This document shows positions 11,561 through 29,984 of a stretch of DNA of 64,000 bases, piece after piece. Origin of the DNA: Minisyncoccota bacterium (GTDB lineage Bacteria; Patescibacteriota; Minisyncoccia; 2-02-FULL-40-12; IGHO2-01-FULL-4-A); contig JBBEDS010000014.1 in assembly GCA_040881175.1 (NCBI GenBank), positions 23,174-87,173 of the forward strand, in the 5' to 3' direction. The position numbers were made by a program, and so were the translations under genes. The notes below the pieces were generated by a model. That model did no database searches. It was given only the letters and a program-made list of their open reading frames with translations, and had not been told where the DNA came from. Positions within the stretch are counted from its first letter, which is position 1. The number at the start of each line of letters is the position of its first letter.

Positions 11561-12383
11561 AATAAAGAGAGAGCTCAAGGAAGCTGGCGTACGGCCTAAC
11601 AAACTACTCGGGCAGCACTTCCTAACCAGCATGTCCATCTATGAAAAAATCGTGGCTGCTCTTGATATACAGGGGGGTGATAAAATCATAGAAGTCGGAC
11701 CGGGCATTGGTATTCTAACAGAGCTAATCGCCAAACAAGGAGCAGATCTTTTTGCCGTGGAAAAAGATAAAGATTTCATACCGTTTCTAAAACATAAGTT
11801 TAAAAACCAAGAAAATGTTAAAATACTGGAAGGAGATATCTTAAAATTTGATCCGGAGAAATACGGGTTTAAAAAGGGTGCCTATAAAATTGTAGGGAAT
11901 ATACCATACTACCTAACATCAAGACTCTTCCGTATTACTCTTGAAGATTGGCCTCAAGCTAATCTGTCCGTGTTCATGATTCAGAAAGAGGTAGCCCAGA
12001 GGATAGTTGCACAACCGCCTCACATGAGCCTGCTCGGAGTTTCAGTGCAATACTTTGCAAAACCGAAGGTAGTAAGCCGTGTTTCAAAGTTGAGCTTTCA
12101 TCCTGTTCCTAAAGTAGATTCAGCTATAGTCAGGCTTACGCCAAATGATGAACCCCATCAGAAAGAATATGATGAAAAGTTTTTCAAAGTTCTCAAAGTC
12201 GGCTTCGCAGGCAAAAGAAAACAGCTGATCAATAATCTTCACTCCGGATTAAAAGAAGACAAACAGGAAATAGAAAAAAAATTAAATTCTATAGGAATTA
12301 ATTCCCAAAGAAGAGCAGAAACTCTAACCATTGAGGAATGGCAAAAAATTACTGAGTTATTCAACAGCACTGGTTCCCTTTAG
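11538..12383 (+). CDS. rsmA: 16S rRNA (adenine1518/1519-N6)-dimethyltransferase
   Basis: GQHFL and EVGPGIGILT SAM-binding motifs; NIPY catalytic motif. Confidence 0.9.
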   Translation: MMNSLNTRIKRELKEAGVRPNKLLGQHFLTSMSIYEKIVAALDIQGGDKIIEVGPGIGILTELIAKQGADLFAVEKDKDFIPFLKHKFKNQENVKILEGDILKFDPEKYGFKKGAYKIVGNIPYYLTSRLFRITLEDWPQANLSVFMIQKEVAQRIVAQPPHMSLLGVSVQYFAKPKVVSRVSKLSFHPVPKVDSAIVRLTPNDEPHQKEYDEKFFKVLKVGFAGKRKQLINNLHSGLKEDKQEIEKKLNSIGINSQRRAETLTIEEWQKITELFNSTGSL

Positions 12384-12413
12384 GTTCGGTTTATAATATA
12401 CTTATACTACAAA

Positions 12414-12668
12414 ATGAAGCATTTCTATAAGATACTCCTTATATTATTAGTTTCCATATTGATATTGTCCGTACCGCAGGCAGTCTTAGCTGGTTTTAGT
12501 GTTGGTCTTCCATTCGGTGGTATGATACTTTTTGCCATTCCTTGCACATGTAACGCCTCGACTCTCCTAATTGTTGGACCACCAGTGCCAGGTGCTTACA
12601 TGCTCACACCGGCAACTATTATATTATGTATGCGAACTTTAAACCCCTTCCAGGCAGTTGGGTACTAG
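12414..12668 (+). CDS. small secreted/hydrophobic protein (84 aa; signal peptide then two hydrophobic segments; possible pilin-like subunit)
   Basis: MKHFYKILLILLVSILILSVPQAVLA signal-like N-term then GFSVGLPFGGMILFAIPCTCNASTLLIVGPPVPGAYML; first gene of the T4SS-like block. Confidence 0.4.
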   Translation: MKHFYKILLILLVSILILSVPQAVLAGFSVGLPFGGMILFAIPCTCNASTLLIVGPPVPGAYMLTPATIILCMRTLNPFQAVGY

Positions 12669-12908
12669 GCACAGCAGACATACCTATACCCTGCCTGGTA
12701 GGTGTGCCACCAGCCTGTCTTCCTGCCGGTGGTGGGCCAGCTATTAGAATGCTGGGGACCAGTTAAACTTAAGTAGAATAAGGCAAAAATCCACCTTAGC
12801 GTCGCAAAGAGTTATTAACAGAACCACTAACCACAGATAATCAACAATTGTGGTATGATTAGTATAGGAATATGTTAGTTTGTTATTAAGTATTGTCGTA
12901 TCAATAAT

Positions 12909-13850
12909 ATGAATACAAAACTTAAAATAACCCTTGGAGTGCTGCTGCTAGCAGCTGGATTTATGGTAACTCGAGTTGGCTTGTTTTTAAATAATAGCAC
13001 CAAGAACGCAAGCCTAAGTTTACAAGGGCAAAACGTATTGTCGGCAACGGACGAGAATCCATTCTTCATTGACACCGATGGCGATGGTATTCCTGACTAT
13101 GACGAACCGTATTACCGAACAGACCCATCTAACCCCGACACCGATGGTGATGGTTATCTTGACGGCGAAGAAGTCGCATCTGAATGTAGCCCAATAATCC
13201 CACGGCCAAATGACTGCCCCGACCCACACCTAATCGGGTTCAAGGGCAACCTAACAGATCAAGTATCTGACCTGCTAGTTGGTGGCTTATATTCCGGAGA
13301 CTTAAAGAACCCCGAAAGCAACAAGGACTTCACCAGTAGTATAGGCCTTGTTAGCAGTAAGGTCTTTTTAGATTTTGACAGTAGCTTCGCAGACCAGACT
13401 AGCATTGCCGATTTGAACATTTCTGAAAATAGTGACGTAGATGTTGTCGCTTCCTATATTGAAAATACGGTAAACATCCTAGAAAAAACCATACTTCGGC
13501 CCCAACAAGAACAAATCAATGAAATTAAAAAGGGCCTAAACTTTATGCTACTCTTTCCCGAAGAGGAGAATGAGGTGTTAATTAATCTCAGAGATACTTA
13601 CACAAAAACTCACCAAGACTTATTGGCCTTGAATGTACCTCCTGACTGGAAGTACTCTCACTCCAAGCTAGTCAACTCAATTAATAGGTTTGCTCTTATT
13701 TATAGCTACATCTCCAATCCCGAAATTGACCCTGTCGCCAGTATCTTATCCTTCGAGAAATTAATAGATGAATTTTATGCAGCTCAATCCATTTTAGACG
13801 AGCTGAGAGTCAAAGCAGATTCATATAACCAAACATCTTCTCAGCAATGA
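12909..13850 (+). CDS. secreted protein with thrombospondin-type-3-like Ca-binding repeats (DTDGDGIPDYDE, DTDGDGYLDGEE)
   Basis: N-terminal TM/signal, D-x-D-G-D-G repeats; otherwise unassignable. Confidence 0.5.
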   Translation: MNTKLKITLGVLLLAAGFMVTRVGLFLNNSTKNASLSLQGQNVLSATDENPFFIDTDGDGIPDYDEPYYRTDPSNPDTDGDGYLDGEEVASECSPIIPRPNDCPDPHLIGFKGNLTDQVSDLLVGGLYSGDLKNPESNKDFTSSIGLVSSKVFLDFDSSFADQTSIADLNISENSDVDVVASYIENTVNILEKTILRPQQEQINEIKKGLNFMLLFPEEENEVLINLRDTYTKTHQDLLALNVPPDWKYSHSKLVNSINRFALIYSYISNPEIDPVASILSFEKLIDEFYAAQSILDELRVKADSYNQTSSQQ

Positions 13851-15142
13851 AGAACCAAATTAAGGTAATCGTCTTGTGTGCTTTAGTGATTGCGTCTGGA
13901 TTTGCCGTACACCTTAGACTACGAGAGGCCAAGGCTTTTACAAGCTTTGGCACAGCCCTCATACCAGCAGTACCAGTAAGTGTAGTCGCAGACGTGCCTT
14001 TTAGTGTGAAGGAGCAAATAGAAGACGTGCTTGTGAGAAAATTGGCCCAGAAAGCTCAGTCAAAACTACAAGACGGGGTTCTGTCTAAAATTCAAACGGC
14101 TGGCAGACTCGGAGGACCGGCATTCATAGGCAACTGGCAAAGCTTCCTGCAAGACGCCCAATATATAGGAGAGGGTACATTCCAATCAATGCTAAGCGAT
14201 GCAATCTCTAAAAACGAGGTATGCGACTACCTGAAGGGACCACTAAGCCTAATATTCAAACCGCCCTCACGTCCGGCAGCAGGTATCAGCTCAGGTCTTA
14301 ACCGCATCTACGATCTCCAGCCCTACGGCTCCAAGGTTCGTTGTAGTAATTTAGTCAAATCTTTGGATTTGAATACGTTTAGAGAAGACTTTACTCAAGG
14401 CGGCTGGGGAGCTTGGGATGAATTAATTAAACCGCAAAATAACTTTCTGGGTACTTATAACACAAGCCTAACAGAATTAATAAAACGTCGTTCTTTCTCA
14501 GAAACCGCCGATGCAAAAGAAGGTACGTCCGGGAGTGGTTTTACGTCTAAACGTGATTGTACGGGACAAACCACTCTTACCTGTATCGTGTTAGGACAAA
14601 TCCAGACACCAGGTAAAATACTTGAAGACACGGTGCAAAGGTCAATCGATGAAGACTTCTCCTGGATTACAAGTGCAGATGAATTCTCAGAGCTATTACT
14701 TGCTATAGGCGACTCTCTGTTCAATGCGGTTATTTCAAAGATAGACAACCTCGGAGGCGGAGGTGGAGGTTTTTCCGGCGGAGGGGGAGGTGGAGGAGGT
14801 CAGCCAGCGAACGGAAGCGGAGAAGAGCCAGCAGCTTTAGACGCATCTTGTCTCTCAGAGTGTATGAAGAATACTGATTCAGTTTGCTCTGAAGCAACTC
14901 CGGCCTGTATCGATATAGCCGGTCCGAATGGTACTCCAGATGGTACAATCGATTTTATAGATCGCATAGTGGCTGGCTTGGGAGGGAACACTCAAAATCT
15001 TGACATTGCAACTATTCTAAATTTAGATCCCACATCTTTTTCATCAGCGTGTCGTTTGCCTGGTGATCCTGACAGTCCTGAATTACTACAGTGCAGGTCT
15101 AATGTGGCATCAGAGTGTACCAACATATGTACGCCTAAATAA
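13847..15142 (+). CDS. secreted hypothetical protein with Gly-rich low-complexity tract and Cys-rich C-terminal domain
   Basis: Start overlaps previous stop (ATGA); signal-like N-term; GGGGGGFSGGGGGGGG; eight Cys in last 100 aa. Confidence 0.5.
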   Translation: MKNQIKVIVLCALVIASGFAVHLRLREAKAFTSFGTALIPAVPVSVVADVPFSVKEQIEDVLVRKLAQKAQSKLQDGVLSKIQTAGRLGGPAFIGNWQSFLQDAQYIGEGTFQSMLSDAISKNEVCDYLKGPLSLIFKPPSRPAAGISSGLNRIYDLQPYGSKVRCSNLVKSLDLNTFREDFTQGGWGAWDELIKPQNNFLGTYNTSLTELIKRRSFSETADAKEGTSGSGFTSKRDCTGQTTLTCIVLGQIQTPGKILEDTVQRSIDEDFSWITSADEFSELLLAIGDSLFNAVISKIDNLGGGGGGFSGGGGGGGGQPANGSGEEPAALDASCLSECMKNTDSVCSEATPACIDIAGPNGTPDGTIDFIDRIVAGLGGNTQNLDIATILNLDPTSFSSACRLPGDPDSPELLQCRSNVASECTNICTPK

Positions 15143-15181
15143 CCCAGCCCTTGCTAAGCCAACAGTTCTGATCTGCTCCTA

Positions 15182-17509
15182 ATGTCAAAAACAAACCTAA
15201 GAAAAAACGTGCTTAAAATAGTCCTCATATCGCTGGTTTTATTTGCATTTTTTGTTCCCCAGCATACAAATGCCGATCTGATAGATATCTCGTCTTCCGT
15301 TTTCGATACAGGTGTGGCCTGGGCAAATGCCAGAGTACTGGAAGGCATGGGAAATATAATATCCTGGTCGGCATTGATGTTAGAACAGTTTATCAAACCG
15401 GATGTTCAAGAGTACATACTCAACTATAGCGTTGTCGAAGAAAGCTGGACGATAATCAGAAACTTCGTGAATATGTTCTTCATTCTGTTTTTAATCATTA
15501 TCGCCTTCGGTACTATCTTTGGTATTGAAAAATATTATTGGCGCAATACGATCATGCCGTTTCTAGCAGCGGCACTGCTAGTTAACTTTAGCTTAGCCAT
15601 AGGCAAGTTCGTTATCCAAATAGGTAACAGTCTCGCAGCAATGGTGCTTGTATGGATACAGCAGTCCGGAGCTAACATATCAACTAACCTGGGAAGTGGC
15701 CTGGGTCTGGGTTCTTATTTTAAAGATCCGGGAATTGGCGCCCTAGCATCTATTGCAGGCGGAGGCGCCCAGACTCTTGTAACTCTGGTCTTTTCGGCTG
15801 TATTCTTAACGATAACCCTATTCGCGCTTCTATCTGCACTAATATTCGCAATTGCCAGAATTCCTGTGTTGTGGGCAATTCTGATTTTATCTCCTATAGC
15901 CTTCGTCAGCTATGCACTACCGAGTCTACAGCATATCTGGAAAAAATGGTGGAGCTACTTAATAAGTTGGTCTTTTTTCTTGCCTACTTATTTATTTTTT
16001 CTGATGTTCTCCATATTCTTCATAAGCCAGAAGGGGAAGGTAGGTACCCCACAACCCACAGGAATAGCAGAGGCACTTGTCGGTCCAGGGTCAGCAGTAG
16101 GAGATCTGTTGTTTTTCATCCTCACCATATTATTCTTAGTGGGCGGTCTTCTCGCATCTTTCAAGGTTGGCTCTCTTGCTGGTAGTGGGGTGAACAAAAC
16201 ATTCAGTGCGATTCAGGGAGGTATTAAGAGGGGTACCAGAAGAATCACGGGTTATGACACTGCCGCAGCCGGAGTTAGAGAAGGCCTGCAAGGCAGGATA
16301 GACGAGATTAGCGAGAAAGGACTCGCTGGCATCGGCGGTGCCCAACGAGCCAGGATTAGCCAGGCTAAATGGGCCGAGAGTTTCGGCTTTGGAACAAAGA
16401 GGGGGGCGGCAGATGAAGCCCGCCAGAAAGAAATAGAGAAAGAATTCTCAAAACTCAAGACCCTAAACCTAGACAAAACTGGCTTGGAGCAGAGACTTTC
16501 AAGCACTAAGGGTATAGATAAGATGGCTGCCTTGAGGTTAAAGGCCGAACAAGGATGGCTTAATACAAAGGATCTTGATCAAATAAAGGAAGCCATACAG
16601 AGTTTGGGTGGAGGTAAGACTATAGCTGGTGTTTCATTCATTAACTCTCTGAAGAAGGGTGGCTTCAAAGATATTACAAAAAGCACCGTTGAAAAAGAGG
16701 CCCTCTTTAATAGTCTCTCTGGCCCTGAATTCATAGAGCTACAGAAAGCTCTTGGATCGGATATGGCAAAGAAGAAGGAGATTATTAAACCAGAGATGGC
16801 CAAGAAAGTTATTGGCTTGTATGAAAATGACTCAGCAGAGGCCAAGAAAGAAATCATGGATGCTATTAAAAATAATCTCGGCAATATATATGCGGATAAA
16901 GGCGCTCGTGAGAAGTTTCTTGTAGACACAACCGACGCGAGCAATACTGAGTTGCGAAGGTTGTTAGCAGAAAAAATGGTTGAAGACGACGAGATTGACA
17001 GCTATAAGAAATACCATGCTGCTCAAGAACTATTCAGCGGAGATCCACAAAAGATAACAGATATGCGCAATAAGATAGCGAAAGAAAACCCTATAGTTGC
17101 GGCTGAAGTCGAGACTAGATCTAACATGAGCGCTACAAAGCCAGGAATAATTAACCCAGACTACGTGCTTGAGGAGGCTGATCAAAAGGCAATAGCTGAC
17201 ACAGATACAATAAAGAAAGCTGTGGGTAAGGCAAGTGCCAAACAGCTGGGCCAATCTAACAAAGACACCTGGAAAGAAGATTGGTTTAAGATAGCCCTCT
17301 GGAAAAAAGCTGATTCATTACAAAAAGTAGACCCACACAAATCGGCCGCAGGTAAGAGGAGGAGAATACCTGGAGGAGGAGAAAGATTCTTACAATCCCT
17401 TAAAAAGTCTGTCGGCGAAAACACAGATAAAATACCTGTGCTAAATGAGTTGCTCCAGTCTTTTGATGAATCGACAGGAGCTTTTAACCCCCTGCCACCA
17501 ACCCCTTAG
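15182..17509 (+). CDS. VirB6/TrbL-like polytopic membrane protein with long charged C-terminal extension (putative T4SS channel component)
   Basis: Signal peptide, about 6-7 predicted TM helices in residues 90-330, then about 450 aa Lys/Glu-rich hydrophilic tail; topology typical of extended VirB6 proteins; no sequence-level confirmation possible by eye. Confidence 0.45.
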   Translation: MSKTNLRKNVLKIVLISLVLFAFFVPQHTNADLIDISSSVFDTGVAWANARVLEGMGNIISWSALMLEQFIKPDVQEYILNYSVVEESWTIIRNFVNMFFILFLIIIAFGTIFGIEKYYWRNTIMPFLAAALLVNFSLAIGKFVIQIGNSLAAMVLVWIQQSGANISTNLGSGLGLGSYFKDPGIGALASIAGGGAQTLVTLVFSAVFLTITLFALLSALIFAIARIPVLWAILILSPIAFVSYALPSLQHIWKKWWSYLISWSFFLPTYLFFLMFSIFFISQKGKVGTPQPTGIAEALVGPGSAVGDLLFFILTILFLVGGLLASFKVGSLAGSGVNKTFSAIQGGIKRGTRRITGYDTAAAGVREGLQGRIDEISEKGLAGIGGAQRARISQAKWAESFGFGTKRGAADEARQKEIEKEFSKLKTLNLDKTGLEQRLSSTKGIDKMAALRLKAEQGWLNTKDLDQIKEAIQSLGGGKTIAGVSFINSLKKGGFKDITKSTVEKEALFNSLSGPEFIELQKALGSDMAKKKEIIKPEMAKKVIGLYENDSAEAKKEIMDAIKNNLGNIYADKGAREKFLVDTTDASNTELRRLLAEKMVEDDEIDSYKKYHAAQELFSGDPQKITDMRNKIAKENPIVAAEVETRSNMSATKPGIINPDYVLEEADQKAIADTDTIKKAVGKASAKQLGQSNKDTWKEDWFKIALWKKADSLQKVDPHKSAAGKRRRIPGGGERFLQSLKKSVGENTDKIPVLNELLQSFDESTGAFNPLPPTP

Positions 17510-17530
17510 CTAGGGCCAAAAAACACAAGT

Positions 17531-18028
17531 ATGTCAAATGAAATAAATAAAATTTACGACCCAGTCGAGATAGACGCTGACTTCTTCGCCGAGAATGAAG
17601 ATGAACAAGAAAGATTCTACTCAATTGTTAAAACATTGCCCGATCTGGTATTGGATGTGCTATTTGGCCTAGACACCCCCAAGATACTAGAGGGCATAGC
17701 ACGAAACTTTGGACTACAACCTGAACAGTCAGCAATCTTATCAAGACTGGTTCGTAAGGTTCTAATCGGTGATTTTTATATAGGGGACTTTCCATCTAAG
17801 ATATCCTCCGGGCTTGACGTAGATCAAGATAAGGCACGGGAGATAGCAAAAGCCACTGCTTCTGACCTATTTATAGATGCGGTGGCAGATATCAAGCGCA
17901 TCCATTTGCAGAAGTTTCCCAATGCTTCCTTAGAAAAACAGCCAGAAGATACCAAGGGTCAGCAGCACGGAGTAAAAAATTTGTCAGAGACTGGCGGTAA
18001 TATCATTGACCTGCGGTCCAGAAACTGA
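17531..18028 (+). CDS. hypothetical protein (165 aa)
   Basis: ORF track; acidic, no motif. Confidence 0.4.
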   Translation: MSNEINKIYDPVEIDADFFAENEDEQERFYSIVKTLPDLVLDVLFGLDTPKILEGIARNFGLQPEQSAILSRLVRKVLIGDFYIGDFPSKISSGLDVDQDKAREIAKATASDLFIDAVADIKRIHLQKFPNASLEKQPEDTKGQQHGVKNLSETGGNIIDLRSRN

Positions 18029-18059
18029 AACAAAAAGCCCCCCAATCAAGGCGGGCAAT

Positions 18060-18803
18060 TTAAGATTTGTATCCTATGCTGAATAGTCCGAAACTAATAA
18101 CATTTACAATTCTCTTTGCAGTATAGAGGTTTACTAGGAGTCTGGATGAGACCTTGACTATAAATTCCTCCCTGCTAAAATTTTCAAAAAGGTAATCTCG
18201 AAAGATTCTAGTTATCTCTCTTTTTTGTTCCGTAGAAAGTTTAAATTTACGACCCAGCTTTTCTTCTATGAATACCGCGGTTTCGAAACCCATCATAGCT
18301 GACTGCTTATGGGGCGGCAGTTTACCTACTTTTTCTACGTAACCTTGAATCCGTGTTATATCGTCCTTGCTCAGCCGCTTGAGTGCCTCCTTTAGTAGCT
18401 GAAGTGTCTTTTGAAACCCAGCGGCCAGAGAGTATCTCTTTGCCTCTGCGGCAGAGAGCATCGCCTTTTCAGTCATGGCAATTTGACTCCTAAGTTCCTC
18501 TTCTTTTCTAAGTTGCTCAGCGGTTTTACCATAAGAATCAATATTGTAGGGTGTGGCGTACTCACGGTCTTCACCGTCGTAGTTAGCAATGTCAAAAGCC
18601 TCGCACTCTTCATCTCCAGGCTCTTCTTTGTCTATTTGAGTCTCCTTAATCAGTTCCGCTAAATTTTTATTCCCTAGATGGTCTTGATAACCTCTATTTT
18701 GCTCCAAAGTTCTTCGACGACCATCATTACTTAACCAACTTTCGGTACCTTCTAAAAGTGGGCGGTACCCTTTGAGACCCTCCTCATAGGAATAGCTGGA
18801 CAT
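18060..18803 (-). CDS. hypothetical protein (247 aa), opposite strand inside the T4SS-like block
   Basis: ORF track; coiled-coil-like charged protein. Confidence 0.4.
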   Translation of the reverse strand: MSSYSYEEGLKGYRPLLEGTESWLSNDGRRRTLEQNRGYQDHLGNKNLAELIKETQIDKEEPGDEECEAFDIANYDGEDREYATPYNIDSYGKTAEQLRKEEELRSQIAMTEKAMLSAAEAKRYSLAAGFQKTLQLLKEALKRLSKDDITRIQGYVEKVGKLPPHKQSAMMGFETAVFIEEKLGRKFKLSTEQKREITRIFRDYLFENFSREEFIVKVSSRLLVNLYTAKRIVNVISFGLFSIGYKS

Positions 18804-18927
18804 TTGAAATTCCTCTTCTCTATTTAAAGGTTCTTAGCATGTTGCTAATTATCGTAACATAAAAGGTAGTGTTGTCAAGCGATAAGTCCTGTAAGTATCT
18901 GTGCTTTGTTTTTTCTATCAAAAACCT

Positions 18928-18936
18928 GATATAATT
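18928..18936 (+). promoter_or_regulatory. extended -10 element TGATATAAT upstream of PrgI-like/VirB4 genes
   Basis: TGnTATAAT 26 nt upstream of ATG 18962 in AT-rich divergent intergenic region. Confidence 0.3.
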
Positions 18937-18961
18937 AACAGTATACGCTTTACATTAAAAA

Positions 18962-19306
18962 ATGCGCTTCCAAGTCCCACAATTTATAGAAACTGAGACC
19001 AAGATAGTAGGGCCATTTACGCTCAAGCAGTTTTTGTACTTAGCCTCTGGTGCAGCACTCATTTTTATACTTCAATATGCCGTCAGTTTTACTTTCTTGA
19101 TAATTCTCGGCCTACCTATAGCTATCCTAGCTCTTGCATTAGCGTTTTATAAAATTGATGGGATGCCTCTTCCGCAGTATATATTAATGGCATTTTCTTT
19201 CATGAGCGGTACTAAGAAATACGTTTTTAGTAAAAAACAGGATCAGCAATACATACAGAACCAGAATATTAAAAGCCTACAAGACCAGAACGACAATGGC
19301 AGCTAA
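18962..19306 (+). CDS. PrgI/VirB3-like small two-TM membrane protein
   Basis: 114 aa, two adjacent hydrophobic helices (LYLASGAALIFILQYAVSFTFLIILGLPIAILALALAFY), position immediately upstream of VirB4-like ATPase as in Gram-positive T4SS. Confidence 0.5.
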   Translation: MRFQVPQFIETETKIVGPFTLKQFLYLASGAALIFILQYAVSFTFLIILGLPIAILALALAFYKIDGMPLPQYILMAFSFMSGTKKYVFSKKQDQQYIQNQNIKSLQDQNDNGS

Positions 19307-19940
19307 AAAACAAGCGGCACAGCCGCAAACAACTAAAGACTTCGTCCAGATATCAGAAATTCGTGATAACATAGTAGTTCTTAAAGATGGCTCTCTGAGG
19401 TCTCTTATTGAAGTCGGGTCAATAAACTTTGAGTTAAAGTCTGCCGATGAGCAGGCGGCTATAATCCAAGGTTTTCAGGGATTTCTAAATTCGATAGATT
19501 TCCCTCTTCAAATCATGATCAACTCTAGGAAATTAGACATTGAACCATACGTAAAATCCCTTGAAGACTTGAGTCAGAGTCTTAAGAACGAGCTTCTGAA
19601 GATTCAGGCAGCTGAATATACTAGGTTCATAAAAGGCCTCACCGAACTGACTAATATCATGGCTAAGAAATTTTACATAATAGTTCCTTTCTATGTTATA
19701 GAAAATGCGGTCAAAACTCCTGGAGGATTCTTCGGAGCAATAAAGGGTGCCATAATCCCTTCGAAGGCTGAGAAAAAGATAACTGATGAAGAGTTGGAAA
19801 ACTACAAGGTGCAGCTCACCCAGAGGACAGATATAGTATATGGCGGCCTAAGCGGTCTTGGACTACAAATGAGAGTTTTATCAAAAAATGAACTTATGAA
19901 TATGTTTTATTCATATTATAACCCCGGTTCGCATCTATAA
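19296..19940 (+). CDS. VirB4/PrgJ-like ATPase, N-terminal domain encoded as separate ORF
   Basis: VQISEIRDNIVVLKDGSLRSLIEVGSINFELKSADEQAAIIQGFQGFLNSIDFPLQIMINSRKLDIEPYV matches conserved N-terminal region of Gram-positive VirB4 homologues; stop overlaps next start (TAATG). Confidence 0.65.
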   Translation: MAAKKQAAQPQTTKDFVQISEIRDNIVVLKDGSLRSLIEVGSINFELKSADEQAAIIQGFQGFLNSIDFPLQIMINSRKLDIEPYVKSLEDLSQSLKNELLKIQAAEYTRFIKGLTELTNIMAKKFYIIVPFYVIENAVKTPGGFFGAIKGAIIPSKAEKKITDEELENYKVQLTQRTDIVYGGLSGLGLQMRVLSKNELMNMFYSYYNPGSHL

Positions 19941-21700
19941 TGGCTGAGGAGATAACAGAACAACAAGGTAAGCTTACAGATGACCTACTAGCGCCCTCGG
20001 CTATAAATATTTCGTCTAGTAATATCCAAATCGGCAGCCAGTATGCACGAACGCTTTTTGTAGTTACATATCCAAGATATTTAAACACAAACTGGTTCTC
20101 TCCGATAATAAATCTAGATAGGCCTCTTGATATAGCAATCTACGTACATCCCCAGAATACGGCGACCATTCTGAAACAATTGCGGGATCGACTTGGCAGA
20201 TTTGAGGCGCAGGCGATGGAAGAGCAAGCGTCGGGCAAGGTCAGAGATCCCATTCTTGAAACAGCTATCCATGATATTGAAGTCTTAAGAGATCGTCTTC
20301 AGCAAGGCACTGATAGGTTCTTTGAGCTAGGCTTATATATAACAATCTATGGAGACTCCACCAAAGAACTCGATGAAACGGAGAATAAGATAAAGACTGT
20401 CATGGACGCCCAGCTTGTATATACAAAACCTGCCACCTTTCGTATGAAAGAAGGCTTCTTCTCTACAATGCCTCTTAACGACGACCAATTGAATGTTCAT
20501 ACCTCTCTTAACACCGAGCCGATATCATCGATATTCCCATTCGTCTCATACGATCTGACTACAGAGAAGGGGATACTCTATGGAATAAACAGCCATAATA
20601 ATTCTCTAGTTCTTTTCGACCGTTTTGACTTGGAAAATGCAAATATGGTCATCTTCGGTAAATCTGGAGGCGGTAAAAGTTATACGGTAAAACTTGAGAT
20701 ACTGAGAAGTTTAATGTTTGGGGCTCAAATATTTGTCATTGATCCTGAGAATGAATATAAGTTCTTATCAGATACGGTAGGAGGAACCACTGTTAAAATA
20801 TCCATAACCTCAGATAACCATATCAATCCTTTTGACTTACCTAAACCGCTGGAGGACGAGAGCTCCGCAGACGTTCTGCGTTCACATGTAGTTAACCTGG
20901 TCGGTCTCTTTAAGCTGATGTTCGGCGCATTAACACCCGAGGAGGAGGCAATTCTGGATGAGGCAATCACTCAAACATACGCGATAAAAGACATTACGCC
21001 AGGTACTCTTGATTTCAGTAACATCACTCCTCCTTTAATGTCTGACCTACAGAGCATACTTGAGGGAATGACCGGGACCGAGTCTCTTATTATCAGGATT
21101 AAGAAGTACACGGAGGGAAGCTACTCGGGATTCCTCAATAGTCCGACAGATGTTCAGCTGAACAACCAACTCGTAGCTTTTAGCATCAGAGATATGGAAG
21201 AAGAGTTACGACCTATAGCTATGTACCTTGTCCTTAACTTCATATGGACACAGGTTAGAGCTGAGCTGAGGAAGAGATTGTTGGTAGTAGACGAAGCCTG
21301 GGTTCTAATGAAGCATGATGCCGGAGCGCAGTTCCTTTTCAACGTCGCCAAACGCGCCCGCAAATACTTCTTAGGACTCACAACTATATCACAGGACATC
21401 CCTGACTTCATGGCTTCCCCTTACGGGAAACCAATCGTTACCAACTCCTCGTTACAGCTGCTACTAAAGCAGTCTCCAGCCTCCATTGATCTGGTACAAA
21501 AAACGTTCAATCTCACCGATGCTGAAAAATTCTTCTTGCTAGAATCTCAGGTTGGGCATGGTTTATTCTTCGCTGGTTCAAATCACGTTGCCTTAAGAGT
21601 TATTGCATCCTACGCAGAGGACCAAATTATAACCTCTGACCCTAGGCAGATACTCGAGATAGAGGAAGCAAAGAGGCAGCTTGAACAGAACGGAAGTTAA
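19940..21700 (+). CDS. VirB4/TrbE/CagE-family (DUF87/AAA_10) T4SS ATPase, core and C-terminal ATPase domain
   Basis: LLAPSAINISSSNIQIGSQYARTLFVVTYPRYLNTNWFSPIINLDRPLDIAIYVHP core; Walker A VIFGKSGGGKSYTVK; Walker B LLVVDEAW; length A+B about 800 aa equals full VirB4. Confidence 0.8.
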   Translation: MAEEITEQQGKLTDDLLAPSAINISSSNIQIGSQYARTLFVVTYPRYLNTNWFSPIINLDRPLDIAIYVHPQNTATILKQLRDRLGRFEAQAMEEQASGKVRDPILETAIHDIEVLRDRLQQGTDRFFELGLYITIYGDSTKELDETENKIKTVMDAQLVYTKPATFRMKEGFFSTMPLNDDQLNVHTSLNTEPISSIFPFVSYDLTTEKGILYGINSHNNSLVLFDRFDLENANMVIFGKSGGGKSYTVKLEILRSLMFGAQIFVIDPENEYKFLSDTVGGTTVKISITSDNHINPFDLPKPLEDESSADVLRSHVVNLVGLFKLMFGALTPEEEAILDEAITQTYAIKDITPGTLDFSNITPPLMSDLQSILEGMTGTESLIIRIKKYTEGSYSGFLNSPTDVQLNNQLVAFSIRDMEEELRPIAMYLVLNFIWTQVRAELRKRLLVVDEAWVLMKHDAGAQFLFNVAKRARKYFLGLTTISQDIPDFMASPYGKPIVTNSSLQLLLKQSPASIDLVQKTFNLTDAEKFFLLESQVGHGLFFAGSNHVALRVIASYAEDQIITSDPRQILEIEEAKRQLEQNGS

Positions 21701-21701
21701 C

Positions 21702-22361
21702 ATGCCCAGTTACACTGAAGAACAATACGCAAGTGGCCTTAGCATTGCTAGGACACGAAAAGAGCTCGTAGAAGTACAGTCAGAAGCAGATCGAGTCGTC
21801 AAACCACCTTCGGGTGTGTTGTACTTCTTTTTATATGGCTTCTCCATAATAGGAGATATAATTGACTTGGCAGATTTTACCGGAGTCGGCGCCGCTGTCT
21901 CTTTCGTAGTCGATATCTTTATCGGTATAATTCTATTTTTCGCCGGCCGAGCCGCCAGAAACAGAATCGAAACCATGAATAAGTTTCAAGACGAGATTCA
22001 TGGACACATCCAAAACATAGAAAGAAGGGTTGTTTCCCTTAGAAATAACTATGTGCGAGCAATAAAGATATCTCGCAAGATAAAACCCCTAAGAAAACCT
22101 GTACGCAAATTAGTGCTTCGCGTTTCAAAACTGCGCAAAAGCATTGCAAGAAATCCGATGACAAGAACAATGATTGCCGTAGTGGCTGACCTAATCCCTT
22201 TCCTAGGCATCATACCTTGGCGAACTATCAATATATACCTGATGAAGCGCGATGAGATGCGTGCATTTCAAGAAGCACAGGAGATGCTACCAGAATATGA
22301 GGCTGCCCGAGAAGAAGAGATGGCAGAGGCTAACCAGCTATCTGAGGCTCAATCCTACTAG
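21702..22361 (+). CDS. hypothetical membrane protein (about 220 aa, 2-3 TM)
   Basis: ATG one nt after VirB4 stop; hydrophobic GVLYFFLYGFSIIGDII..IFIGIILFFAG segments. Confidence 0.45.
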   Translation: MPSYTEEQYASGLSIARTRKELVEVQSEADRVVKPPSGVLYFFLYGFSIIGDIIDLADFTGVGAAVSFVVDIFIGIILFFAGRAARNRIETMNKFQDEIHGHIQNIERRVVSLRNNYVRAIKISRKIKPLRKPVRKLVLRVSKLRKSIARNPMTRTMIAVVADLIPFLGIIPWRTINIYLMKRDEMRAFQEAQEMLPEYEAAREEEMAEANQLSEAQSY

Positions 22362-22363
22362 AT

Positions 22364-23446
22364 ATGAGTAATAAAATAACTATACTATTACTATTCGTAC
22401 TTGCGGCATTTGCTGCCTTTTTAGGCGGTTACTTCCTTAGCCATAAGTCAGTCGTCGACACCTCTCCACAACAAGGACTTTTAAATAATACCCTCGTGTC
22501 TAGATTTAAGGAGTCTCCCGAGAAATACTCGGCACCGGTCGGACTATTTACCATTTCAAGAGAAAAAGCATCCTTCCCTTATTTGGCCAAAAGCGGCAAA
22601 GACGTACTTTACTATTATCCTAGCAGGGGAGAGGTCAGGTCTTCCGCCATAGAAGGCTCCGGGAATAATTCTGCTCTTGTCGCCACTATTAAACCGGGCG
22701 CATTAGATATACAGTGGTCTTCTGAGAGTAAGTTACTGGCCACCTATGTAGATGGCAACATCCTATACGACCTATCATCTGGCTCTTCAAAAGAACTCGA
22801 CAAAGATCTGGTTAGTCCGTCCTTCTCAAATCCAGGAGCCCATGTTGTCTACAATAGGCTAACCCCGGGTGCAACGGGAGGAGATATAAGAATTTCTGAC
22901 GCAGACTTCACTAATTTTAAGACACTACTGTCTACACGAATTGCTTCTTGGGATTTAGGCTGGATAGATAATGACAATATATATCTGCTAAAACAGCCAA
23001 CGTTAATCAACCAGCAAAGTTCTCTTTTAACACTGGGCGTAGAAACCAAAAAGCTAAGTAGTATTCTAGGGGATAAAAAAGACCTGCAGGTTAGCTGGTC
23101 TCCTGACGGACAAAAACTTCTCTATTCTTACGTGAGCAACAGCGCCGAAAGAGAGCTTTATGTAATGACTCTCTCCGATAAAAACTCCGAATTATTAGAC
23201 CTCGGTATCGTTGCTTCACAATGCGTATGGAGCATCGACAATAAAACTGTATTTTGCGGAAGTGGGAACTCTTTCTTTAGTCTAGATACCTCCATCACAA
23301 GACCAGAGCATACTAGAATAACAAGTCTGGGCAGAGATACTTTCAATATCTCTGTTATAAACCCGCTTCTTACTAGCTCGGAAGCTTATGTTGTATTCAT
23401 AAATGACCAGGACGGTAAGCTCTACGGCTTGAGTTTGGACAAGTAG
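22364..23446 (+). CDS. membrane-anchored beta-propeller (TolB/PD40-like) protein
   Basis: N-terminal TM; repeated DG-x-x-L-x-Y/SWSPDGQKLLYSY motifs reminiscent of PD40/WD40-like propeller blades. Confidence 0.45.
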   Translation: MSNKITILLLFVLAAFAAFLGGYFLSHKSVVDTSPQQGLLNNTLVSRFKESPEKYSAPVGLFTISREKASFPYLAKSGKDVLYYYPSRGEVRSSAIEGSGNNSALVATIKPGALDIQWSSESKLLATYVDGNILYDLSSGSSKELDKDLVSPSFSNPGAHVVYNRLTPGATGGDIRISDADFTNFKTLLSTRIASWDLGWIDNDNIYLLKQPTLINQQSSLLTLGVETKKLSSILGDKKDLQVSWSPDGQKLLYSYVSNSAERELYVMTLSDKNSELLDLGIVASQCVWSIDNKTVFCGSGNSFFSLDTSITRPEHTRITSLGRDTFNISVINPLLTSSEAYVVFINDQDGKLYGLSLDK

Positions 23447-23450
23447 CTCT

Positions 23451-24902
23451 TTACTCAACCTCTGTCTTTGTCGGTATGTCAGAAGGTGACTCTGGCTTTT
23501 TTAGAGATACGATATCTCTAAGTTCTTTCGTGGAGAAACCCCTGAAGAGAAATAGGGCAGGGACATATGAGAGTGTGGCTACCGAAGCCAGGACAAAGTT
23601 TCCTCTAAGTGGGTAAACTATGGCTGCCATGACAAGCGTGGCTAGCATCGCCCGAAAGAATACCCCCAGCTCAGCCGATGCGGCTGATTCTTTTTTAATA
23701 AGCCAGAACATCCAGATCGTAATTAATATTTCTGTAACTACAGTAGTCCAGGCGGCAGCGAAATATGTATACTTAGGAATCAAAATAATGTTTAGCCCGG
23801 CATTAAATATGGCACCGGCTAAGTAAACCCACATGCCTTTCTTCTGAATATTAAGAGCAACTATTGAGTTGCCTCCTAAATTACCGAAGAAAATAACAAA
23901 GACTGCAATACTCAAAATCTGCAAGACAGGACCTGACTCAATGAACCCGGCTCCTCCTACCAAGCCGACTAGTTTATCTGAAAGAAGAAAAATATATGCC
24001 GTCATCGGCAAAGCCATAACTGCTAACACATTGAATGCTCTGCGGAATACTTTAATAAACTTTTCTTTATTCTCAAAAGCATGCCTTGATAATAGTGGCA
24101 TCATCAGCCCTATGAACGCAGCCGGCAGAAAGATAACGGCCTCCAGCATCTTATACGGAACGGCGTAAACTCCGACATCATAGGCTGGCTTCATGATTGA
24201 TAACAGCAATAGATCTAGCCTGAAGTAAATTAATACAAATATAAGGGAAGCGGCTATAGGAAATGCTATCTTCATTACCTCCTTCCAGTAGCTAACATCT
24301 ATCATTAGCTTCACCTTAGTTAACGGTTTTGAGAAACGATAGATCAAGAAAAAGTGAACCACCTCTGTAATAACTACGGCCCAAACGAACAAAAGCAGAG
24401 AAGCCCCCATCTTGAATATAATAAGTAGCAGTGCTAGCTGGACTAGCCTAGCGATAATGTCGGAAATAGAGATAAAGTAGAGCCTCAGGTGCTTTTGAAA
24501 TATCCCAGTTAAAACCTGGGATAGCGAAGAGAAAATAGTGAAGAGAGATGCGATCAGGACTCCTAGCTTAACCGAAAGAGTATAGGGCATGAAGAAGACA
24601 AGCAAGTCGGCCACTACTACTACGGAGATGACTGCAAGCAGTCTTAGTGTAAATATTTTACTAGAAATAATCGACTCTTTGTCCGGCCCTACCTTGGAAA
24701 CCTCCCTAACTAACACGGTGTAGAGTCCAAGGTCTGCAATAGCAGTGAATATGTACAAGTATGCAAAAATTGAATTGTAGTAACCAAAGCCGGTTGGTCC
24801 TAAAGACCTGGTTAAAACACCCACTACGACCAGACTAATAATCCCGACTGCTAGCCGGGACAAAACAGCGATTCCAAAGTTATAGGAGATTTTTTGTATC
24901 AA
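23451..24902 (-). CDS. MOP-superfamily flippase (Wzx/MurJ-like polysaccharide or lipid II flippase)
   Basis: 483 aa, about 14 TM helices, typical polysaccharide biosynthesis protein architecture. Confidence 0.7.
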   Translation of the reverse strand: MIQKISYNFGIAVLSRLAVGIISLVVVGVLTRSLGPTGFGYYNSIFAYLYIFTAIADLGLYTVLVREVSKVGPDKESIISSKIFTLRLLAVISVVVVADLLVFFMPYTLSVKLGVLIASLFTIFSSLSQVLTGIFQKHLRLYFISISDIIARLVQLALLLIIFKMGASLLLFVWAVVITEVVHFFLIYRFSKPLTKVKLMIDVSYWKEVMKIAFPIAASLIFVLIYFRLDLLLLSIMKPAYDVGVYAVPYKMLEAVIFLPAAFIGLMMPLLSRHAFENKEKFIKVFRRAFNVLAVMALPMTAYIFLLSDKLVGLVGGAGFIESGPVLQILSIAVFVIFFGNLGGNSIVALNIQKKGMWVYLAGAIFNAGLNIILIPKYTYFAAAWTTVVTEILITIWMFWLIKKESAASAELGVFFRAMLATLVMAAIVYPLRGNFVLASVATLSYVPALFLFRGFSTKELRDIVSLKKPESPSDIPTKTEVE

Positions 24903-24924
24903 GGAGGGTTAGCCGCTGGTCAGC

Positions 24925-25416
24925 TTAGAACTGTTCCAGCTGGGGCTTCACAATTATTCTTCGTCTTGGCTCCTGTCCTATGCTCTCAGTTTGAATCTCC
25001 TTGTTAGCAGCGAGTTCTGTATGCACTAACCGTCTTTCGTAAGAGCTCATCGGCAGTAACGCCTCCGCCCTTCTTGTTTGAATAACTCTTTGGGCAGCAT
25101 CTTTAGCTAAGCCGACTAAATAATTAGTTCTTGATTTTCGATAGTCGTTGACGTCAATTATAAAATTAAAGTCGGCACCATTTATATCTAACTTTCTAGT
25201 AGCGACGAGTCGTATGATGTGTTCAAAGGCACTAAGATTCTGTCCGTTTTTTCCAATAAGCATGCTCAAATCATTATCTGACTCAACCGATACCGTAGAG
25301 AATCTATTCTCAGTGGAGTCGTTCTCAATAAACTTAACATCACCGTCAAAACCAACCTTATTTAAAAGCTCTTTCGTAATTTGAACTATTTTGTTTTTAT
25401 CGGTATCGGTGGCCAT
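24925..25416 (-). CDS. jag: Jag/KhpB-like RNA-binding protein (KH + R3H domains)
   Basis: C-terminal R3H motif (RRLVHTELAANKEIQTESIGQEPRRRIIV) and position downstream of yidC; start set at MATDTDK to avoid overlap with yidC. Confidence 0.7.
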   Translation of the reverse strand: MATDTDKNKIVQITKELLNKVGFDGDVKFIENDSTENRFSTVSVESDNDLSMLIGKNGQNLSAFEHIIRLVATRKLDINGADFNFIIDVNDYRKSRTNYLVGLAKDAAQRVIQTRRAEALLPMSSYERRLVHTELAANKEIQTESIGQEPRRRIIVKPQLEQF

Positions 25417-25426
25417 TGTCTTAAGT

Positions 25427-26140: not shown

Positions 26141-26149
26141 AATAAATGT

Positions 26150-26386
26150 TTAAGCTAGGTCCACTCCTCCTTTAGAAAAAGGATTGCACCTAAAGATTCT
26201 TTTAACTCCTCTGGCTCCTCCGCCTACGATACCATATTTTTCAATAGCATCATGCGTGTACTGTGAACAAGAAGGGTAAAAACGGCAACGAAGGAAGCTA
26301 CCACTAAAAATAAATCCATGATCGGGAGATAATGTTTTCTGATACATCCTAATTATATTCAATACAATCTTTTTCATGCTTGCCAA
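26150..26386 (-). CDS. yidD: membrane protein insertion efficiency factor YidD
   Basis: [40 protein letters not shown] matches YidD/hemolytic domain. Confidence 0.8.
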
Positions 26387-26395
26387 AAGTTTAAA

Positions 26396-26740: not shown

Positions 26741-26742
26741 GG

Positions 26743-26880
26743 TTAAATCGATAGCTTCTTGCGACCCTTGGCTCTGCGTCTTGAAAGGACCTTCTTGCCG
26801 TTTCTTGTTTCAGAACGTTTAAGAAATCCGTGTTTCTTCTTTCTTTTCTTCTTCTTTGGTCTGTACGTGGTGATTTTCAT
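26743..26880 (-). CDS. rpmH: 50S ribosomal protein L34 (not in ORF track, below 60 aa)
   Basis: Minus-strand [48 protein letters not shown], canonical L34 sequence, stop 2 nt before rnpA start. Confidence 0.8.
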
Positions 26881-26945
26881 AGACAAACCTTAGCAATTTT
26901 TTAGCGAAAAGTCAATTTAGAAAAAGGCCATAGACTATCAACTTT

Positions 26946-29689: not shown

Positions 29690-29697
29690 TAACTACC

Positions 29698-29982: not shown

Positions 29983-29984
29983 GA

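Follow-up and report, generated by a model that had tools for sequence, protein, structure and literature searches.

Patescibacteria, which rely on host cells, account for much of the known diversity of bacteria. The chromosomal stretch analysed here (the window, 64 kb in all, from the Paceibacteria, Yanofskybacteria-like, chromosome of a Minisyncoccota bacterium) carries a T4SS-like block with a VirB4 ATPase and no relaxase beside it, which raises the question of what such a machine is and what it does for its bearer.

The block is bordered by rsmA (RrnaAD match), directly upstream, and a flippase gene (Polysacc_synt match), as an initial annotation made from the sequence alone had proposed, and every ORF listed there was recovered where it had been placed. 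The locus lies about 5 kb from rpmH/dnaA, i.e., near dnaA, dnaN, rnpA, ksgA (rsmA), and rpmH, which is the placement described for Paceibacteria. In the synteny comparison across related genomes that the annotation had called for, the order rsmA, locus, jag, yidC, rnpA, dnaA, dnaN was kept in 80 Paceibacteria species-level genomes, and the neighbourhood uvrD-rsmA ... jag-yidC-rnpA-dnaA-dnaN-PBP1 was identical in dozens of species. This conservation argues for vertical inheritance and against an island; the GC content of the locus also resembles that of its surroundings.

The locus belongs to the already published Patescibacteria T4SS (PMC12102498; PMC10633639), a chromosomal non-conjugative system beside the replication origin in nearly all Patescibacteria/CPR, of a kind described in 2023-2025. 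Quinonero-Coronel et al. 2025 (PMC12102498) characterised it as a monophyletic system that has no relaxase and lies close to the origin. It shares with that system VirB4 with a separate TrsD, PrgI/VirB3, a VirB6-like protein, monoderm (MPF_FATA) ancestry, and the missing relaxase. The initial reading, in which a CPR-type bacterium encodes a T4SS-like machine with VirB4, PrgI/VirB3, and VirB6-like components, is borne out by family matches and Patescibacteria homologues. The locus is no new kind of system and serves as a clean Paceibacteria example of a machine that, like few others, has been shown to be required for the host-dependent lifestyle: Southlakia epibionticum needs its T4SS genes, but not comEC, to grow as an epibiont (Wang et al. 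2023, PMC10633639; summarised in PMC12857230).

The genes form two tightly packed co-directional units (Table 1): a conserved "motor" (PrgI/VirB3, TrsD, VirB4, a 3-TM protein, and an anchored TolB-like propeller) and a hypervariable "channel and surface" unit (TSP3 protein, Cys-rich p431, an extended VirB6-like protein, and soluble p165). Partner families occur at fixed positions in 24-51 of 53-65 related loci, the denominator being, depending on the family, the 53 loci with enough flank or 65 loci.

Table 1. Features of the T4SS locus and its flank, in window coordinates
Feature	Position	Strand	Basis or remark
Hypervariable block	12353..18957		DNA unalignable to nearest relative (L081); both flanks align at 78-79%
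Small secreted Cys-containing protein gene, frameshifted	12414..12766	+	annotated 84-aa ORF stops at 12668
TSP3 protein (p313), 313 aa	12909..13850	+	TSP3_bac PF18884; first gene of hypervariable unit
p431, 431 aa	13847..15142	+	conserved core, poly-Gly tract, 13 Cys
VirB6/TrbL-like polytopic protein, 775 aa	15182..17509	+	several weak convergent signals
p165, 165 aa, no TM	17531..18028	+	alignment of family
p247, 247 aa	18060..18803	-	inverted partial paralogue of p165 family
PrgI/VirB3-like, 114 aa, 2 TM	18962..19306	+	PF12666, E 2.3e-10; first gene of conserved unit
TrsD/TraC-like, 214 aa	19296..19940	+	NF041427, E 4e-8; overlaps both neighbours
VirB4 ATPase, CD1110 / MPF_FATA-type, 586 aa	19940..21700	+	NF045971, PF19044
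3-TM protein (p226), 219-226 aa	21681/21702..22361	+	TM prediction; unannotated family
TolB-like beta-propeller, 360 aa, N-terminal anchor	22364..23446	+	profile vs PDB TolB, E 6e-12
jag, yidC, yidD, rnpA, rpmH	24.9-26.9 kb		flank of T4SS locus
dnaA	27011		flank of T4SS locus
dnaN	28601		flank of T4SS locus

The conserved motor unit

The VirB4-family assignment made initially is confirmed by NF045971 (NCBIfam conju_CD1110; 353 bits against a cut-off of 325, E 2.7e-105) and PF19044 (E 1.6e-23), and the translation carries the Walker A (GKSGGGKS) and Walker B (LLVVDEAW) motifs that had been claimed for it. Profile searches also detected CagE_TrbE_VirB and TraC N-domains. Against residues 221-772 of pCF10 PrgJ, the protein shows 25% identity (E 1e-40), while its match to CedB (41 bits, E 7.8e-11) falls far under the cut-off. 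A HerA/FtsK-type ATPase, which would have overturned the initial reading, was considered and rejected, as DUF87 scored E 3.3e-9 versus E 2.7e-105 for CD1110. The best 120 VirB4 homologues are 69-100% identical, and those named come nearly all from Paceibacterota, Yanofskybacteria, and other Patescibacteria MAGs. The best-scoring curated model, CD1110, is a monoderm family. Judging from these relationships, the protein very likely belongs to a monophyletic Patescibacteria clade nested in MPF_FATA.

Beside VirB4 is encoded a VirB3-like membrane partner, the PrgI-like protein, whose family and two predicted TM segments agree with the initial annotation (PF12666, 41.3 bits against a cut-off of 27). 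Its gene is found directly upstream of TrsD/VirB4 in 72 of 80 loci. The ORF between the two, which was absent from the gene list of the initial annotation, matches the TrsD model NF041427 with 33 bits, under the model cut-off of 200. It also matches the N-terminal parts of VirB4 models, and an orthologue is annotated as PF26593 (TraC-like); a separate TrsD-like ORF is present in 76/80 loci. The ORF thus corresponds to the N-terminal domain of a full-length VirB4, encoded here as a separate gene.

Two further membrane-associated proteins complete the unit. The small membrane protein noted initially after VirB4 is a real ORF in which two TM segments lie side by side, followed by a coiled coil, one more TM, and an acidic tail. 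An HMM of this family (p226) found it in 24/65 loci, always right behind VirB4. The last gene had been described as a membrane-anchored beta-propeller, and the PDB TolB profile match agrees; PD40 is faint in an orthologue. The propeller has two invariant Cys, is predicted to sit outside the membrane, and occurs in 50 of the 65 loci.

The channel and surface unit

The TSP3 protein (p313), in keeping with its first description as a secreted protein with TSP3 Ca-binding repeats, matches PF18884 (E 2.9e-8, 33.9 bits against a cut-off of 25). One N-terminal TM is followed by two TSP3-type Ca-binding repeats and then a domain of about 210 aa with no recognised fold; the sole PDB profile match covers the repeats. 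This layout points to a membrane-anchored extracytoplasmic protein. It is present in 39/53 related loci with enough flank and is 33% identical to its L081 orthologue.

Next to it is p431, correctly recognised at the outset as a Gly-rich/Cys-rich secreted protein. A poly-Gly linker joins its mostly helical conserved core, which has the motifs GRDGGPxFV, GGWxAW, and PQNN and conserved Cys, to a tail rich in Cys, and the protein is predicted to be secreted or anchored. Its predicted structure, with a pLDDT of 52, is too poor for interpretation. The unannotated family comprises >5,000 clusters and always lies immediately upstream of the VirB6-like gene; even its distant relatives adjoin the VirB6-like gene, PrgI, TrsD, and VirB4. 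We conclude that p431 represents a consistent, previously unannotated T4SS partner, and this family, as the constant companion of the VirB6-like gene, merits structural work.

The 775-aa protein has an N-terminal hydrophobic segment, six TM in a domain at about residues 90-330, and a hydrophilic, helical C-terminal extension of about 450 aa, modelled with low confidence and containing a Lys/Glu-rich region. It has no direct Pfam match, and the signals linking it to VirB6 are individually weak (Foldseek E 0.1-0.2; hhalign P 0.007). Since these signals converge, we uphold the VirB6/TrbL-like topology first ascribed to it and count it as the polytopic channel protein of the locus, i.e., a candidate translocation channel, assigned less firmly than VirB4, PrgI, TrsD, and the TolB-like protein. 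It is a single-copy gene, without sequence similarity to other extended VirB6 proteins such as the Rickettsiales VirB6 paralogues or Legionella DotA.

The two genes that follow had been listed as hypotheticals. Both ORFs exist (165 and 247 aa), and the second turns out to be a partial paralogue of the first. In the 165-aa protein, p165, a SPY-type motif at the N-terminus is followed by a helical domain and a Pro-rich linker, and the C-terminus carries the conserved tail LPE[ST]GGNIIDLR. No relatives were found in PDB or Pfam searches. It is present in 35/53 loci, invariably after the VirB6-like gene and before PrgI, and is a candidate cytoplasmic adaptor or substrate.

Absence of conjugation genes from the window and comparison with known systems

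Among the ORFs of at least 250 aa in the 64-kb window, no relaxase, VirD4/TcpA-type ATPase, or integrase was detected, and no flanking att-like repeats were found. The initial annotation had reported no relaxase, coupling protein, or integrase, had named one of these adjacent to the block as grounds for abandoning its reading, and had held that this was not a conjugative element; together with the fixed synteny, the search leaves all of this standing.

The machinery nevertheless resembles that of conjugative plasmids of monoderms. The VirB6-VirB3-VirB4 order mirrors prgH-prgI-prgJ of pCF10, which also has a PrgI family member; TrsD is a separate small ORF in pGO1 (Trs) as well; and, like pCF10, pGO1, and pSK41 (MPF_FATA), the locus has no outer-membrane core complex. 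In contrast to these plasmid-borne systems, it is chromosomal and vertically inherited, its VirB6-like protein is three times the length of PrgH, and no counterpart was found in it of the pCF10 T4CP PcfC, relaxase PcfG, hydrolase PrgK, VirB8-like PrgL, or adhesins PrgA/B/C. A comparison of p226 and p313 with PrgL by hhalign gave no similarity.

The ancestry and gene order raise the possibility of a DNA-exporting conjugation apparatus, with relaxase, oriT, and coupling protein located elsewhere on the chromosome or too divergent for recognition. The gene absences concern 64 kb of the genome, and 2,918 of the patescibacterial genomes analysed have VirD4-like genes at a distance from virB4 (PMC12102498). 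However, relaxases were found in just 103/3,035 Patescibacteria genomes (PMC12102498), the chromosomal position is the same across species with no mobile-element hallmarks, and a t4cp homologue is non-essential in S. epibionticum, unlike the T4SS (PMC12102498, citing PMC10633639). We regard conjugation as quite improbable.

Within the Patescibacteria, the Saccharibacteria locus (SEML1_0006-0019) differs in having a VirB2-like pilin array, an NTF2/VirB8-like protein, and a VirB1-like hydrolase, none of which was found here, and two giant VirB6-like proteins where our locus has a single VirB6-like gene. No VirB2-like pilin gene, a frequent though not universal neighbour of virB4 in the Patescibacteria T4SS, was found in the window, whose sole small 2-TM ORFs are the 84-aa ORF and PrgI. 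Likewise, no partner gave a Pfam, NCBIfam, or PDB-profile match to a VirB8-like protein (NTF2 fold) or a VirB1-like cell-wall hydrolase. The p313, p431, p165, 3-TM, and TolB-like partners are not named in the main text of PMC12102498 or in its available supplementary files.

Two evolutionary rates

Compared with L081, a 6.6-kb stretch gives no blastn alignment between flanks that align well. Amino-acid identity is 33-38% for the TSP3 protein, p431, the VirB6-like protein, and p165, versus 76-93% for PrgI (78%), TrsD, VirB4, and p226 (76%), or 64-93% for the conserved unit once the TolB-like propeller (64%) is included. Pairwise comparison across the clade shows the same pattern. One half of the cluster thus evolves far faster than the other, and this split is a new increment over the published system; neither the main text of PMC12102498 nor its available supplementary files mention it.

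The dN/dS values against L081 are 0.015 for VirB4, 0.043 for PrgI, 0.079 for p226, and 0.15 for the TolB-like protein, i.e., these genes are under strong purifying selection. In the hypervariable unit dS is saturated, so dN/dS is not computable there. The sharp split is the pattern expected if the channel and surface half mediates host specificity. Relaxed constraint on parts of the proteins could be another source of the hypervariability.

These values also bear on the idea that an integrated conjugative element has decayed here and left a remnant that no longer does anything, an idea to which the missing conjugation-specific genes, the frameshifted gene at the edge, and the partial inverted duplicate p247 inside the locus would lend themselves. 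Yet selection on VirB4, PrgI, p226, and the TolB-like protein is strong (0.015-0.15), the nine core ORFs are all intact and translationally coupled, the nine families are retained in the same order in dozens of species, and a cultivated relative cannot do without its homologous system (PMC10633639). A remnant is already contradicted by selection and synteny, and we find it barely credible.

Proposed function

The role of the patescibacterial T4SS has been called "completely unknown" by reviewers (PMC11665869). We think it fairly probable that the locus encodes a relaxase-less T4SS of conjugative ancestry, with its motor and channel/surface units working at the symbiont-host contact; we infer its assembly, transport direction, substrate, and host role as follows. 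The system would descend from monoderm conjugation machinery (MPF_FATA type) that lost its DNA-processing parts. VirB4 hexamers, held at the membrane by PrgI and TrsD, would energise the VirB6-like channel, while the TSP3 protein, p431, and the TolB-like propeller would build or decorate the part that crosses the wall, is exposed at the surface, and contacts the host cell. An extracytoplasmic location of these partners is suggested by their N-terminal anchors, the 13 Cys of p431, the invariant Cys of the TolB-like protein, the Ca-binding repeats, and Dsb-like genes present in the 64-kb window. We would like to note that, as no VirB8-, VirB1-, or VirB2-like component was found here, the extracellular architecture is guesswork. 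Macromolecules may be moved across the contact, protein export being more likely than import, so that the machine would serve the host-dependent lifestyle and not conjugation. Fast evolution of the channel and surface unit might come from adapting to particular hosts, or from evading recognition by hosts or phages. The evidence that the T4SS is essential is limited to a Saccharibacterium, whose locus differs (PMC10633639).

The direction of transport deserves separate consideration. Bordetella Ptl is an exporter, whereas H. pylori ComB and archaeal Ced import DNA. All three have a VirB4 without coupling protein or relaxase, and the missing coupling protein here would, by analogy, suit an importer such as ComB or Ced no less than an exporter such as Ptl. 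The resemblance in sequence is only at the level of the VirB4 superfamily, the partner proteins are others, and Ptl and ComB come from diderm envelopes.

An uptake device of the ComB/Ced kind, with VirB4-driven import of host DNA, nucleotides, or other building blocks, would have the weak CedB similarity on its side, and such a role has been proposed by reviewers for Patescibacteria, which are without nucleotide, amino-acid, and lipid synthesis (PMC11665869, PMC12857230). Nevertheless, VirB4 is much nearer CD1110/PrgJ-type ATPases (353 bits) than CedB (41 bits), and no CedA/CedA1 or ComB2-3 partners were detected. In S. epibionticum, DNA uptake is dispensable and proceeds via T4P and ComEC, while the T4SS is essential (PMC10633639); DNA uptake being separate from the T4SS there, any import through the latter would be something else. 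The role in DNA uptake touched on in the initial annotation is speculative. Overall, we judge uptake rather unlikely and retain the secretion-type machine at the symbiont-host contact as our preferred reading.

More tentatively, it is possible that the Paceibacteria T4SS combines a slow motor with a hypervariable, perhaps recombinationally exchanged cassette that sets host range, with p431 as a new universal extracellular component and p165, through its conserved GGNIIDLR tail, as a recognition adaptor or a translocated substrate that replaces the coupling protein. The defined nine-gene core, with its five unannotated partner families, provides a testable lead.

Accessory and inserted genes

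The 84-aa ORF at the edge of the block had been described as pilin-like, an identity we reject: it carries a frameshift, belongs to an unrelated family of small secreted proteins, and is missing from most relatives (L081 has an Lnt gene there). Its C-terminal half continues in a second frame to 12766. Neither the protein, even when repaired, nor its family matches any Pfam model, a set that takes in the T4SS pilin families PF04956 and PF18895 provided that the Pfam version searched contains them. The family usually measures 112-136 aa, with the motif FGG..PCTC..VGPP..PG.WVLG..C..C..GTS, and full-length homologues were found in 3 related loci (phmmer, E<1e-4), with 2 weaker ones. The gene is probably a variable accessory outside the machine.

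The p247 gene is a lineage-specific insertion. Residues 140-242 match the p165 orthologue of L081 (BLASTP, E 1e-15), and an 84-nt patch matches the L081 p165 gene in reverse orientation; the N-terminal half is new, and the NIIDLR tail is missing. L081 itself has no p247-like ORF; such ORFs occur in just 2-4 loci, always on the opposite strand. In the window, promoter-like and terminator-like sites flank the gene.

Composition and position of the locus

An ORF scan recovered every gene that the initial annotation had named between rsmA and the flippase gene, and its observation of a T4SS-like locus in a CPR bacterium is confirmed, with its interpretation supported. The components comprise a VirB4 motor with a detached N-domain and a VirB3-like tether, a VirB6-like polytopic protein, and three anchored extracytoplasmic proteins; products of no assigned family are named here by length (p165, p226, p247, p431).

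Coordinates of the locus, its neighbours, and other features of the window
Feature	Position	Strand	Remarks
uvrD, rsmA and entire T4SS	9578-23446	plus	
rsmA	upstream flank of locus	plus	RrnaAD, E 4e-58
T4SS locus	12414-23446	plus	p247 on minus
Frameshift in 84-aa gene	near 12608-12640		AT-rich run; other frame continues to 12766
p165	17531-18028	plus	between channel gene and PrgI
p247	18060-18803	minus	84-nt patch at 18209-18291
TrsD	19296-19940	plus	214 aa
Flippase gene	downstream flank of locus	minus	Polysacc_synt
jag, yidC, yidD, rnpA, rpmH	downstream of flippase	minus	
dnaA	27011	plus	
dnaN	28601	plus	
PilB-type T2SSE ATPase	36391-38061	minus	PF00437, E 1e-122; MshEN domain
Thiol-disulfide protein pair	41546-43346		Redoxin/Thioredoxin_10 and DsbA-like
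DUF11-repeat surface protein with CAP-domain protein	45933-49505	minus	DUF11 protein 886 aa
High-GC stretch	56000-59000		GC up to 0.53-0.54, ~0.43 elsewhere
Ala/Glu-rich protein	57048-58445	minus	465 aa; weak C-terminal SHOCT match

The locus ends ~3.5 kb from dnaA, and due to the cumulative GC-skew minimum and AT-rich stretch at 27-30 kb, we place it in the replication-origin region. uvrD, rsmA, and the T4SS are plus-strand genes located left of the presumed origin (rpmH/dnaA, 26.7-28.4 kb), so that their transcription runs towards the origin and meets the leftward fork head-on; this orientation is kept in related loci.

The locus as a chromosomal fixture

The initial annotation had read the locus as non-conjugative, and this reading stands: among ORFs of at least 250 aa in the 64-kb window there is no relaxase, VirD4/TcpA-type ATPase, or integrase. 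The decisive evidence against a conjugative element is synteny. We collected 80 species-level genomes through VirB4, those with lineage names being mostly Yanofsky-, Nealson-, Nomura-, and Harrisonbacteria along with other Paceibacteria. Their common gene order is uvrD, rsmA, (TSP3, p431, VirB6-like, p165), PrgI, TrsD, VirB4, (p226), TolB-like, jag, yidC, rnpA, dnaA, dnaN, PBP1. Partner presence was counted by family HMMs, only in loci with enough flank. Due to this conserved synteny and the retention of the partners, we conclude that the system is a vertically inherited chromosomal fixture. No flanking direct (att-like) repeats were found, and the GC content of the locus is the same as that of its surroundings. 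The synteny and the composition, with no att repeats and no integrase among the ORFs covered, led us to reject an ICE or genomic island.

Amino acid identity of locus products to the nearest relative (GCA_004196275.1) and family presence in related loci
Product	Identity	Loci with family
TSP3 protein	33%	39/53
p431	36%	40/53
VirB6-like	38%	51/53
p165	34%	35/53
PrgI	78%	
TrsD	87%	
VirB4	93%	
p226	76%	24/65
TolB-like	64%	50/65

Motor proteins and the putative channel

The 586-aa ATPase scores 353 bits against NCBIfam NF045971 (CD1110; cut-off 325, E 2.7e-105), matches the TraG P-loop family PF19044 (E 1.6e-23), and aligns to residues 221-772 of pCF10 PrgJ with 25% identity (E 1e-40). On these matches we assign it to the VirB4 ATPases of the monoderm CD1110 family. 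A HerA/FtsK identity was rejected, since DUF87 matches at E 3e-9 only, as against E 2.7e-105 for CD1110; the profile scores thus favour VirB4 over an FtsK/HerA-type ATPase, as first proposed. The ~220 N-terminal residues missing from this VirB4 are supplied by a separate ORF of 214 aa that the initial annotation had missed. This product matches the TrsD/TraD family (E 4e-8) and, in several VirB4 models, the N-terminal part; its orthologues are annotated as PF26593 TraC-like. PrgI (114 aa, PF12666, E 2.3e-10) has two TM segments, and the 360-aa TolB-like protein combines an N-terminal anchor with a TolB-like beta-propeller (E 6e-12 for its profile against TolB in PDB).

Besides a hydrophobic N-terminal segment, the 775-aa protein contains six TM segments and a hydrophilic tail of ~450 aa. 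It has no direct Pfam match; among its homologues, 7/20 have a PF19590 TrbL_3 domain and others a PF04610 TrbL domain. Word-indexed homologue searches were sparse for this protein and for p431, leaving shallow alignments behind the structure predictions; in the AF2 model of the 775-aa protein the TM domain is confident (pLDDT 80-95). The sole coherent top Foldseek matches are TrwI/VirB6 of R388 (probability 0.93-0.97, TM 0.39-0.48, E 0.1-0.2), and hhalign against pCF10 PrgH gives P 0.007 with a conserved Arg and Pro aligned. The gene lies just 5' of PrgI and VirB4, a position like that of prgH in pCF10. We accept the protein as "extended VirB6-like" on this convergent, individually weak evidence from homologue domains, AF2/Foldseek, hhalign, and position.

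Two evolutionary rates within one locus

Within the collections, GCA_004196275.1 (its locus is termed L081 here) is the nearest relative; its housekeeping genes and those of the window share 79-92% identity. By blastn, the window aligns to L081 over 9643-12352 (79%) and 18958-31000 (78%), with no alignment over the intervening 6.6 kb (12353-18957) except for a 164-nt stretch that encodes part of the VirB6-like TM domain. Strong constraint acts on the motor unit (PrgI, TrsD, VirB4, p226, and TolB-like), while the channel/surface unit (TSP3, p431, VirB6-like, and p165) changes fast. For instance, dN/dS against L081 is 0.015-0.15 for PrgI, VirB4, p226, and TolB-like, the conserved genes where it was computable. 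For the four products of the hypervariable unit dN is 0.64-0.74, and no dN/dS value is given due to saturation of synonymous sites. Despite this divergence, the proteins of the variable unit are retained, intact, and carry invariant residues.

The pattern is general: across the 80 Paceibacteria loci, the variable unit is decoupled from VirB4 and dnaA. In locus pairs with VirB4 at least 90% identical, median identities are 80 for dnaA, 85 for TrsD, 77 for PrgI, and 62 for TolB-like, as against 42 for VirB6-like, 41 for p431, and 32 for p165. Even where VirB4 is at least 93% identical, VirB6-like identity spans 38-93%. Identity values are discordant in trios of equidistant genomes, a hint that alleles were exchanged instead of diverging in a clock-like manner.

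Partner and accessory proteins

The 313-aa TSP3 protein is anchored and carries two TSP3 Ca-binding repeats (PF18884, 33.9 bits, cut-off 25). No family was found in Pfam, NCBIfam, or PDB for the 431-, 165-, 247-, and 219-aa (p226) products. Profiles of the TSP3 protein, p226, and p165 retrieved only Ca-binding repeats and coiled-coil noise from PDB. The TSP3 protein and p226 were also considered as VirB8-like candidates and rejected, as hhalign against pCF10 PrgL was negative.

The p431 family is very large, with matches at E<=1e-3 to the representatives of 5,011 clusters formed at 50% identity, and relatives at 23-25% identity are still encoded directly upstream of a TrbL-type gene, PrgI, TraC-like, and VirB4. 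The two adjacent thiol-disulfide proteins elsewhere in the window are in keeping with the formation of disulfide bonds in p431 and other secreted Cys-rich proteins.

p165 is soluble, and its family has an N-terminal SPY motif and a Pro-rich linker followed by a conserved C-terminal tail, LPE[ST]GGNIIDLR[NS] (alignment A8). This tail resembles a docking or secretion signal, and we speculate that p165 is an adaptor or a substrate. The minus-strand p247 is related to the p165 family as an inverted, partial paralogue (E 1e-15) whose N-terminal half is new; read in reverse, its 84-nt patch matches the L081 p165 orthologue at 76% identity. p247 is not present in L081, and the promoter-like and terminator-like sites flanking it were the only informative output of a promoter/terminator scan.

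The 84-aa ORF, tentatively called pilin-like in the initial annotation, is no pilin. It belongs to a family of secreted, Cys-containing proteins of 112-136 aa (motif FGG..PCTC..VGPP..PG.WVLG..C..C..GTS) for which there is no Pfam model, and its gene is frameshifted, the C-terminal half continuing in another frame; the copy may be a genuine pseudogene, or the assembly may be wrong here. A VirB2-like identity was rejected, as the ORF has no Pfam match, is frameshifted, is not in L081, and has a Pro/Gly/Cys-rich mature part without two TM helices. Of the 80 related loci, only five gave a match to the family (three at E<1e-4), mostly on the opposite strand, and the gene is probably not part of the machine. 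L081 carries in its place, between rsmA and the TSP3 gene, a gene for a 546-aa Lnt (apolipoprotein N-acyltransferase; L081 2693-4333).

Relation to published systems and possible function

In an analysis of 3,035 Patescibacteria genomes, Quinonero-Coronel et al. 2025 (PMC12102498) found VirB4 in 2,417, nearly all in one clade nested in MPF_FATA, with TrsD as the commonest companion, followed by PrgI/VirB3 and VirB6. Relaxases occurred in only 103 genomes, VirD4-like genes were common though far from virB4, and the Paceibacteria locus lay near dnaA, dnaN, rnpA, ksgA, and rpmH. The window's locus matches this T4SS, a kind already published, so that the finding itself repeats published knowledge and what is new are incremental leads. 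TolB-like, TSP3, p431, p165, and p226 are not named in the main text of that study or in the supplementary files searched. Unlike the Saccharibacteria locus, the window's locus has neither VirB2-like pilin genes nor an NTF2/VirB8-like protein, and it is also without a second giant VirB6-like gene.

We propose that VirB4, TrsD, and PrgI would energise a VirB6-like channel, with the TSP3 protein, p431, and the TolB-like propeller as a wall-spanning or exposed part contacting the host. Such a machine would move macromolecules at the symbiont-host interface, and its variable unit may track host or predator diversity. In Southlakia epibionticum, T4SS genes are essential for growth on the host by Tn-seq, and comEC is dispensable (Wang et al. 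2023, PMC10633639). According to reviews, the role of the T4SS is unknown, with effector delivery or uptake as the roles mentioned (PMC11665869, PMC12857230), and our search of the 2025-2026 literature found no functional resolution of the patescibacterial T4SS. A ComB- or Ced-like import role is a serious rival. Nevertheless, we lean towards protein export, because conjugative systems that export are the ones closest to the ATPase and because DNA uptake in a cultivated relative proceeds via T4P and ComEC. The class of system matters, and the leads are the two-rate architecture, the p431 family, and the p165 tail.

The PilB-type ATPase in the window belongs to a type IV pilus system. Besides the T4SS, this is the envelope machine that cultivated relatives are known to require. 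The DUF11-repeat protein and the adjoining CAP-domain (cysteine-rich secretory) protein are both candidate adhesins. The high-GC stretch coincides with the gene for the Ala/Glu-rich protein.
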